NCBI RefSeq assembly: GCF_003334385.1
Contig: NZ_QOWN01000068.1
Strand: one strand, 5' to 3'
DNA from: Escherichia coli
GTDB lineage: Bacteria > Pseudomonadota > Gammaproteobacteria > Enterobacterales > Enterobacteriaceae
Length of the DNA: 10,419 nt
A model generated the notes under the pieces. The model had not been told where the DNA came from. It searched no databases and worked only from the letters and a program-made list of their open reading frames with translations. Shown one piece after another: positions 85 to 1,010 of this stretch. A program made the translations under genes and the position numbers. Numbering within the stretch: position 1 is the first letter of the stretch; the number at the start of each line of letters is the position of its first letter.

Positions 85-106
85 AAAAAACCCGCCAGGC
101 GGCGGG
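85..106 (-). terminator. tR'-like intrinsic terminator downstream of the late promoter
   Basis: Minus-strand hairpin: 6-bp all-G/C stem (plus 91-96 cccgcc, 101-106 ggcggg, loop aggc) followed by a U6 tract (plus A-run 85-90). Lies a few tens of nt downstream of the putative pR' start, as in lambdoid 6S-type late leaders. Confidence 0.55.
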
Positions 107-138
107 GTGTAAAAAATCTTCTAACGTCAGGCATAAAA

Positions 139-183
139 CGCCCATCATTAGGGCAAATTTACCACAGATTCGGGAAAAATCAA
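139..183 (-). promoter_or_regulatory. pR'-like late promoter with promoter-proximal sigma70 pause / Q-utilisation element
   Basis: Minus strand reads TTGATT (-35, plus 183-178), 16-bp spacer, TAAATT (-10, plus 161-156), then TGCCC-TAATGATGGG. This closely resembles lambda pR' as recalled (TAAATT-TGACTC-AACGATGGG). It starts 6 bp after the Q stop codon. Confidence 0.5.
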
Positions 184-188
184 CAAAG

Positions 189-1010
189 CTATCTGGTCAC
201 CTTTTTCAGTTGTTGTTCTGCCCATGCTTCTTCAATATCAAACTGCACCACCAGCGTATCGTAAAAACGTTTAACTGTTTTTTTCCATGTATCAAGAGAT
301 ATGGCATCGGTTACATTACATATGGCATTAAATGCCTCCGTTGAAGGTAATCTTTCATAGCCACGCCCACCACAACGCTGACAGTTTCTGAAAACCGGCA
401 CACCCTGTTTTTCCGACTCTTCACGATGAATGGCAACACCGCGCCCACGACAATCTTTACAGGCAGTGGATACCTCTCCCTTCCCTCCACACTCCGGACA
501 GGCAACTTTTACCACCTCCCTGACTTTTTTCCATTCCTCCCAGTAAGACGGATACACGCCTTTTGTGCACTTTGCCCACACTGGCGGCTTACCATCCGGA
601 TACTGGATCTTGTTTGTAAAAACCTCGCTTTCAATAAATTTTTTTCCGTGACAGCAGGGGCACTGTTTTTTGCTCGCCGCGCTACGGGCATAATCTTCAA
701 ACGCATACGAAGCCATAATACGCATCACTGCCGGTTTTATTTCTGCCGGGAGTTTTCTTAACGCCGCCACGCGATCACACCGACTGAGTGCATATTCTGT
801 CAGCAATTCTGTTGCCCGCTCTCTGTCATTCATACTAATGCCCATTTTCCCAAGGAACGCAGAAAACCCCATCTCAGCCCGATTCTGTGTCATGCCCTGC
901 GCGGCCATCACATCAGTGATACTCAGCGCATCTTTCGACGTTGAGGCCGATGCATCAGTCAGGCCGGGGGATTTTGGGGAGTAGTATTTCGGTAAATCTT
1001 CCAGTTTCAT
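189..1010 (-). CDS. Late-gene antitermination protein Q family (273 aa)
   Basis: Position immediately upstream of the pR'/tR' module and downstream of rusA in a nin-like region; C-terminal Cys pairs (CPECGG..CKDCRG..CQRCGG) typical of a Q-type zinc-binding region; ATGA start/stop overlap with the upstream RusA gene. Confidence 0.75.
   Translation of the reverse strand: MKLEDLPKYYSPKSPGLTDASASTSKDALSITDVMAAQGMTQNRAEMGFSAFLGKMGISMNDRERATELLTEYALSRCDRVAALRKLPAEIKPAVMRIMASYAFEDYARSAASKKQCPCCHGKKFIESEVFTNKIQYPDGKPPVWAKCTKGVYPSYWEEWKKVREVVKVACPECGGKGEVSTACKDCRGRGVAIHREESEKQGVPVFRNCQRCGGRGYERLPSTEAFNAICNVTDAISLDTWKKTVKRFYDTLVVQFDIEEAWAEQQLKKVTR

Follow-up and report, generated by a model that had tools for sequence, protein, structure and literature searches.

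A predicted lambda-type late-gene switch with a long-arm Q protein and a co-varying leader complementarity in a Qin-like prophage of Escherichia coli

Late-gene control of the Q-lambda type is built from a promoter, a Q-binding region between its -35 and -10 hexamers, a -10-like pause element at +1 to +6 followed by GGG, and a terminator (PMC9388147, PMC4005639, PMC5001585). The sigma-dependent pause element has been defined experimentally (PMC4005639, PMC5001585); in lambda the pause is at +16/+17 (PMC4005639), and the preference for the terminal base is U>C>A>G (PMC5001585). Q proteins fall into separate families, with Q-lambda in PF03589, Q21 in PF06530, and Q82 in PF06323 (PMC9388147). The N-terminal segment of lambda Q forms a ring at the RNA-exit channel, with roles assigned to individual residues (PMC9388147), and in the Q-loading complex sigma region 4 takes up a new position immediately before the pause element (10.1101/2022.03.25.485794). 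Short late-promoter RNAs have been noted in lambda, 21, phi80, 82, and P22, and the StxS type combines a Q of 144 amino acids with a precursor of 258 nucleotides (nt) that RNase E processes to a 74-nt Hfq-binding RNA with an rpoS-pairing seed (PMC7547250). The subject of this study is a cassette of Q, late promoter pR', pause element, and terminator tR' on the minus strand (positions 1010 to 85) of a 10,419-nt stretch of Escherichia coli DNA (assembly GCF_003334385.1, contig NZ_QOWN01000068.1), the whole of which is called the window.

The cassette is read here as the late-gene switch of a Qin-like lambdoid prophage, built like the switches of lambda, P22, and phi80 and very probably working in the same way. 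The cis elements, the homology of Q, and the layout of relatives make its reading as a complete Q/pR'/pause/tR' module well supported; the start site, the pause, Q binding, and read-through would follow by homology. It is an uncharacterised example of a thoroughly known kind, ordinary but complete.

The Q gene (1010..192, stop codon TAG at 191..189, minus strand) was delimited from its open reading frame (ORF), Pfam, an alignment with lambda Q, and a structural model, and encodes 273 amino acids of the long-arm Q-lambda type. PF03589 is found in it twice (residues 24-111, 5.6e-22; residues 178-265, 2.6e-29), together with a DnaJ CXXCXGXG domain. BLASTP gives 32% identity to lambda Q (E 4e-41), and a sequence search of the PDB has Q-lambda 7UBM/7UBN as the top match (1e-41; 1.1e-41 for 7ubm_Q). 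An AlphaFold model built from 27 family members has a predicted local distance difference test score of 82 and a predicted template modelling score of 0.64; its best structural match is 7ubn_Q (E 2.3e-14, template modelling score 0.75 on the target). Judged from alignment and model, the protein is a genuine member of the Q-lambda family with the predicted fold of that family, in agreement with an earlier sequence-only reading of this stretch, which had called the gene Q. The Q-lambda fold has a body of four helices with a helix-turn-helix, a zinc-ribbon arm, and polymerase-contacting segments at the N and C termini, and the window Q is predicted to share these parts. Residues 1-113 and 182-273 align with lambda 1-113 and 116-207, the N-terminal segment (SPKSP, TDVMAA-GM, G39) and the C-terminal L..VTR are kept, and G39, L268, and T272 correspond to lambda G39, L202, and T206. 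The window Q is 66 amino acids longer than lambda Q, however, and has a 68-amino-acid insertion (residues 114-181; window 468-671, minus strand) that adds two CxxCxGxG motifs for a total of four, as in DnaJ. In the model, the insertion forms long beta-hairpins at 125-136 and 159-170. The long arm is present in 25 of 27 diverse aligned family members, with lambda and P22 alone lacking it, and is therefore the common form of the Q-lambda family. To our knowledge, the solved structures of the family are all of the short-arm lambda protein.

Directly past the Q stop codon, where the sequence-only reading had placed a promoter-like element, the minus strand has a putative pR' of the form TTGATT-16 nt-TAAATT. 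The -35 hexamer (TTGATT, 183..178) lies five bases after the stop and matches four of six consensus bases; relatives have TTTACT, TTGCAT, or TTGACT at this position. The spacer TTTCCCGAATCTGTGG has T-15 and G-14 at 164 and 163, giving an extended -10 (156..164; TG at 164..163, G, TAAATT at 161..156) whose hexamer is identical to that of lambda pR' and conserved in relatives. The predicted start is A149 (+1), with the pause element AATGAT at +1 to +6 (149..144) and GGG at +7 to +9 (143..141), base for base in register with lambda AACGAT-GGG. A close parallel to lambda pR' and its sigma70-dependent pause site had been claimed from the string TAAATT-TGCCC-TAATGATGGG, and this string is exact at 161..141, with TGCCCT between the -10 and A149. 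The lambda sequence TAAATTTGACTCAACGATGGG (TAAATT-TGACTC-AACGAT-GGG) is identical at 17 of 21 positions with equal spacing, its +1 A corresponding to window 149. The window has a single instance of the pattern TAAATTN6AAYGATGGG, and 200 dinucleotide-preserving shuffles yielded none. By analogy with lambda, the pause would be at +16/+17 (A and U, 133..134, then G at +18). TTGCCC (151..156) stands at the position of the lambda -35-like TTGACT, a weak positional assignment in which TTG-C only is kept and the stretch is variable among relatives. A terminator-like hairpin at 155..139 (TGCCC-taatgat-GGGCG, then TTTTAT) overlaps the end of the -10 through to the pause element and is probably incidental; it was rejected for this overlap and because its 5' arm is the variable -6 to -1 stretch (TGCTCT, CGTCAT, and TACCCT in relatives).

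The candidate Q-binding core is TTTCCCGAA (169..177, minus strand), proposed from conservation and position. This block is invariant in the window, Kpn_R1, PHB10, and Midgardsormr38, whose Q proteins are 52-100% identical, and the bases just past the stop codon vary. It lies where the phi80 record annotates the site of its Q (gp17), TCGCGGA, for which the window has TTCCCGA. Each Q subfamily has a conserved -35/-10 spacer of its own: TTTCCCGAA.. in that of the window, TTCGCGGAAAAACTGG in phi80, AAGTGGCGAT.TTTG in ES18, and TATTGAATAAAATTGGG in lambda and P22. Conservation that is specific to the subfamily is the pattern expected of a Q-binding element.

The terminator tR' (85..106, minus strand) was found by terminator scan and folding and has the stem CCCGCC (106..101)/GGCGGG (96..91), the loop GCCT (100..97), and U6 (90..85), which is the G/C hairpin with a U run that had been described before. 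The predicted terminated leader of about 65 nt is, as also foreseen, much shorter than the 194-nt 6S RNA of lambda. From 149 to 82 the leader (68 nt) folds at -20.1 kcal/mol (z = -2.4), with a hairpin at the 5' end, then 16 nt of single-stranded linker, then the terminator. The linker AGAAGAUUUUUUACAC (+28 to +43; 107..122, minus strand) is A/U-rich and unpaired in the minimum-free-energy fold; in relatives it stays A/U-rich while its sequence changes. Relatives have a GC-rich hairpin and U-run at an equal distance, with a different stem sequence (CCCGTC..GGCGGG, CCCGC..GCGGG, GCCTCGGC..GCCGGGGC). For 152 distinct leaders, length was counted from the pause element to a point 7 nt beyond the first terminator stem. 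The median is 68 nt in the subfamily of the window (24 distinct leaders, range 59-139), 71 nt in the ES18 subfamily (37, range 59-170), 76 nt in the phi80 subfamily (45, range 70-78), and 68 nt in the CharmingMan subfamily (45, range 57-73), and the one P22 leader has 63 nt. From the annotated start and terminator, the leader is about 60 nt in P22 and about 77 nt in phi80. Most family members thus have the terminator at 57-78 nt, and the 194 nt of lambda are the exception; the implication of the earlier reading that the short leader is an unusual variant, useful for that reason, is not supported by the comparison. An ORF of 17 codons in the leader (ATG at 134) was also considered, and was rejected because of a 2-nt indel in it among relatives.

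In a close set of 80 IMG/VR loci with Q at least 92% identical, the conserved parts are the -35 through the -10, the pause element with GGG, and +10 to +33, and the variable parts are the bases just past the stop codon, -6 to -1, the linker, the terminator stem, and all sequence that follows tR'. In 16 phage relatives with Q 32-63% identical the parts come in the same order, and the GenBank records of phi80 and P22 annotate pR', a Q site (in P22 a qut-like site), and tR' or a terminator at the corresponding places. Among ES18-like loci (L180-L259), one -35/spacer/-10 combination (TTTACAAAGTGGCGAT.TTTGTTTAAT) is joined to three types of pause element and leader (AACAGTAGA, AATGATGGA, and AACGATGGG), which suggests a mosaic junction at the -10/+1 boundary.

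The closest described systems resemble the window to different degrees. With lambda it shares, besides the homologous Q, the -10 TAAATT, the distance from the -10 to the pause element, the +1 to +6 element followed by GGG, the downstream intrinsic terminator, and complementarity of +1 to +4 with a downstream CGTT (+20 to +23 in lambda). The two differ in the spacer (16 nt with TG in the window, 17 nt in lambda, and with an unlike Q-binding sequence), the pause element (AATGAT versus AACGAT), the leader length, and the distance of the promoter from the Q stop (5 nt versus 45 nt in lambda). The long-arm Q of phage phi80 has 269 amino acids and a full-length identity of 41%; the phage also has an annotated Q site directly past the -35, the pause element AACGCT-GGG, and an annotated terminator, but the Q site and terminator sequences differ and the spacer is 17 nt. 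The phi80 Q was reportedly studied experimentally by Guo and Roberts in 2004 (cited in PMC9388147). P22 has a Q-lambda family protein (gene 23), a lambda-like promoter with AACGAT-GGA, and a short leader given by the annotated start and t-late; gp23 is a short-arm protein of 207 amino acids, however, and the promoter and Q-binding spacer are lambda-like and unlike those of the window. In the Qin prophage of K-12, ydfT (quuQ) encodes a 250-amino-acid long-arm Q that is 40% identical, in a similar context (ydfU/DUF968, hokD), and an unannotated cassette of the same layout lies past ydfT (TTGCAT, TAAAAT, AACGATGGG, CGTT at +24 to +27, terminator at about +40 to +63). This cassette (L340 4361-4460, which is NC_000913.3 ~1,642,360-1,642,459, minus strand) predicts an RNA of about 62 nt, running from 1,642,422 to about 1,642,360; it differs in Q subfamily and spacer, and has csp genes past the terminator in a cryptic prophage.

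The allele is common in the species. A 1,100-nt query of the Q-pR' region was matched in 2,921 of 5,426 complete E. coli genomes, about half. None of the complete genomes is an exact match to the window. In E. coli EC2 the region is 99.9% identical, with a 1-nt difference over the query, and 6 nt differ over 4.26 kb of aligned window. The genes past the terminator in EC2 are a 65-amino-acid ORF, a DNA methyltransferase, two tRNAs, a tolA-like gene, a SASA family carbohydrate esterase, and holin and lysis genes, and in the near-identical loci of EC2 and FDAARGOS_1283 the holin, lysozyme, and other lysis genes are 4.7-5.8 kb downstream. In the Stx2a phage Stx2_EH1910, a Q-pR'-tR' cassette of 97% identity (L092 8929-10169) precedes stx2A/stx2B by 2 kb, with a small ORF, a DNA methylase, and three tRNAs in between, so this long-arm Q-lambda allele can be the antiterminator ahead of Shiga toxin 2a.

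By analogy with lambda, sigma-70 holoenzyme would start at about A149 on the minus strand, sigma region 2 would re-bind AATGAT-GGG at +1 to +9 in the non-template strand, and the polymerase would pause near +16/+17. Without Q it would resume and end at the 106..85 hairpin and U6, releasing a leader of 5' hairpin, A/U-rich linker, and terminator hairpin. Once accumulated, Q would bind the -35/-10 spacer, with TTTCCCGAA as the candidate core, contact the paused polymerase, form with the help of NusA a ring at the RNA-exit channel, and ride with the polymerase through tR' into the downstream genes. Judged from near-identical relatives, these would be a small ORF, a DNA methylase or helix-turn-helix protein, tRNAs, a SASA esterase, and lysis genes, or stx2AB as in the one Stx2a phage. 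Several points weigh against this account. The pR' hexamers match four of six consensus bases each (8/12), and a sigma-70 consensus scan of 1..1500 makes no call, being one below threshold; the promoter was retained because of the TG of the extended -10 and its strict conservation in relatives. The Q-binding site is a candidate placed by conservation and position, and the long zinc-ribbon arm, being unlike that of lambda, could change the contacts with DNA and sigma region 4. The window stops 84 nt past the terminator, and the regulated genes are visible in relatives only. The presence of hokD/sok and DicF in the same prophage, as in the cryptic Qin, means that the cassette could belong to a defective prophage.

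One rival explanation turns on the AATGAT allele. The C-to-T change at +3 (window 147, minus strand) is a rare single-base change in E. coli and a normal element in some Salmonella-phage relatives. Of 81 relatives, 79 have AACGAT-GGG, the T is the sole difference from EC2 over 1,100 nt, and an identical 91-nt promoter-leader segment occurs in only one of 1,656 matching E. coli records, FDAARGOS_1283. Such a distribution would fit a disabling or drift mutation in a decaying prophage, whose switch no longer works properly. The 5' hairpin is also weakened from -8.6 to -6.8 kcal/mol, a C-G pair becoming U-G, and in lambda a consensus pause element raises Q-dependent arrest (PMC4005639), although Q-lambda loading in vitro is still supported (PMC4005639, PMC9388147). 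However, AATGAT retains the critical A2 and T6 and is one step nearer to TATAAT, so sigma binding should strengthen rather than weaken. Among ES18-like Salmonella phages, at least 17 distinct leaders regularly have AATGAT-GGA as their pause element, the Q ORF of the window is intact, and in FDAARGOS_1283 the same T stands beside a Q that is 94.7% identical, which puts the variant on two Q backgrounds. Loss of the switch by this mutation is thus quite unlikely, and the expected effect of the change is a somewhat stronger pause, not a dead switch.

Two further explanations concern what the promoter and terminator are for. The main present-day product could be the constitutive leader, acting in the lysogen as a small regulatory RNA like StxS, which would be compatible with a role in antitermination. 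The layout of 5' hairpin, A/U-rich linker, and terminator hairpin with U-run is typical of a stable small RNA, conservation is higher in the 5' part of the leader than in the DNA on either side, and the pR'-tR' product of Stx phages is an Hfq-binding small RNA (PMC7547250). StxS is likewise a short constitutive RNA from an antiterminated late promoter directly past Q, and a cassette 97% identical to that of the window precedes stx2AB in one phage. However, StxS is paired with the unrelated 144-amino-acid Q and is cut by RNase E from the 258-nt transcript (PMC7547250), the leader studied here has no similarity to it, and relatives differ in the linker, the expected place for a seed. With a Q-lambda-type protein of 273 amino acids, a leader of about 65 nt, and no Rfam match to the leader at the gathering threshold, the locus does not belong to the StxS type. 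At gathering thresholds the only Rfam matches in the window are sok and DicF, both away from the leader, and a permissive scan of 1..400 gives only sub-threshold matches to suhB (18 bits) and isrK (12 bits). The match to isrK (RF01394, Gifsy-1; 12.2 bits, E 3.5, window 85-168) is tempting because isrK comes from an antitermination-controlled Gifsy-1 promoter, but it falls far below the 50-bit gathering score and is treated as chance since none of 15 related loci matches. A regulatory RNA as the main product is therefore rather improbable. It could also be that the 106..85 hairpin merely ends the Q (delayed-early) operon and that the resemblance to a promoter is a non-functional remnant, given hexamers below the threshold of a simple scan and a terminator only about 100 nt past the Q stop codon. 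Across hundreds of loci, however, the -35, spacer, -10, pause element, and GGG are far better conserved than neighbouring bases and in register with lambda, and a relic would not keep its terminator at a fixed 57-78 nt from the pause element in most members, so that this explanation is very unlikely.

Within the late-gene switch favoured here, one feature of the leader is shared by phages of several groups. The minimum-free-energy fold has a 5'-terminal hairpin (123..149, minus strand) with an outer helix of +1 to +4 (149..146) with +24 to +27 (126..123) and an inner helix of +7 to +12 (143..138) with +16 to +21 (134..129), and the outer helix co-varies. In an alignment of nine phages, a CGTT at +20 to +28 is invariant, like the -10 and the pause element, and AACG at +1 to +4 is its reverse complement. 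In a lambda-type set of 54 distinct leaders from the window, lambda, phi80, and ES18 groups, scanned over +13 to +33, 52 have an exact reverse complement of +1 to +4, with the partner segment at +19 to +28 (shuffles: mean 5.3, maximum 12). The partner tracks the pause element, AACG being matched by CGTT in 41 of 41 leaders, AATG by CATT in 8 of 9, and AACA by TGTT in 3 of 4. The two leaders without an exact partner are single mutants, both from the group of the window, namely the window itself (U-G wobble) and L067 (A-C mismatch). The complementarity is specific to the 4-mer starting at +1 (74/76, versus at most 31/76 for shifted 4-mers). It is present at +1 to +4 in the loci of lambda (L002), P22 (L098), phi80 (L089), and ES18 (L087) and in about 100 further loci. 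In the CharmingMan-like subfamily, where Q is 33% identical, the pairs are TCGT/ACGA (14/15), TCAT/ATGA (4/4), and TTAT/ATAA (9/10), with all partners but one at a fixed distance.

RNAalifold found no consensus structure in a 32-sequence leader alignment, because the outer helix is no longer than 4 bp and the inner helices fall out of register; pairs were therefore counted on the named structure, in a MAFFT alignment not fitted to it. The four outer pairs are formed in 98.4% of cells; sliding the partner by 1-3 columns brings this down to 39% or less. At two of the pairs both bases have changed, C-G being replaced by U-A in four cases and G-C by A-U in three, and the observed covariation score was reached by none of 500 shuffles; the independent compensatory events are few, with a count of at least five. 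Folded as whole leaders, only 46 of 140 distinct sequences hold the outer helix in the minimum-free-energy structure. When the 5' segment is folded alone, the helix is the minimum-free-energy structure in 30 of 46 and has negative energy in 40 of 46 (-6.8 kcal/mol in the window). The RNA helix is marginal in several groups, so the pairing may act at the DNA level, and in the CharmingMan group a pause-like hexamer 3 nt past the -10 means that part of the 5' arm may not be transcribed.

It is tentatively proposed, at somewhat less than an even chance, that in late leaders of the Q-lambda type the 5' half of the pause element, made up of the first 4-5 transcribed bases, is under selection to be complementary to a segment at +19 to +28. 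At the RNA level, the pairing could stabilise the leader and the long late mRNA by way of a hairpin at their 5' end, or could belong to a small RNA as one of its structural modules. At the DNA level, the non-template strand of the scrunched bubble could fold into a hairpin, in competition with sigma for the pause element, and help to release the polymerase at about +24 to +28, which is where Q-dependent arrested complexes of lambda are found (PMC4005639). No description of a 5' hairpin or of this complementarity was found in the literature searched, which did not include the pre-2000 lambda literature.

The remaining window has the appearance of the early-right arm of a Qin-like prophage, with RusA, DUF968/HNH, hokD/sok, a Ren-like protein, replication proteins like DnaC and O, a CII-like activator, a repressor, and DicF. 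The hok/sok type I toxin-antitoxin system lies at 3044-3219 (minus strand) with an ORF at 2894-3106 (minus strand), sok scoring 120 bits in Rfam, and hokD is annotated in genomes near-identical to the window. The DicF antisense RNA (10104-10155, plus strand; 77 bits in Rfam) is on the strand opposite the Q operon, as in the Qin prophage. The immunity region has the CII-like activator at 7099-7521 (minus strand) and a divergent repressor-like gene at 7887-8303 (plus strand). The lambda-type CII site TTGC-N6-TTGC has no exact occurrence in the window and 13 one-mismatch matches versus 15.7 expected; an antisense paQ promoter within Q, acting through a lambda-style CII site, is unsupported, the one-mismatch sites being at chance level. 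In Klebsiella phage Kpn_R1, an STnc100 small RNA (L083 1772-1963, plus strand; 84 bits in Rfam) lies about 180 nt past the predicted tR', within the Q-controlled late leader region.

As first stated, the cassette has little weight: the switch is of the textbook lambdoid kind, the E. coli prophage allele that holds it is very common, and a short leader is the rule. The long-arm Q-lambda allele would, from its place ahead of stx2AB, be one type of Q able to determine how much Shiga toxin is made. Most of the family has the long arm with its four CxxCxGxG motifs, and this enlarged arm could meet the promoter and sigma region 4 in another way than that of lambda. The co-variation of the pause element with the downstream segment is the only part that might interest a specialist, as a hypothesis that is cheap to test in the best-studied antitermination system; should the pairing help the polymerase to leave the pause, the classical qut site would gain a further cis element.

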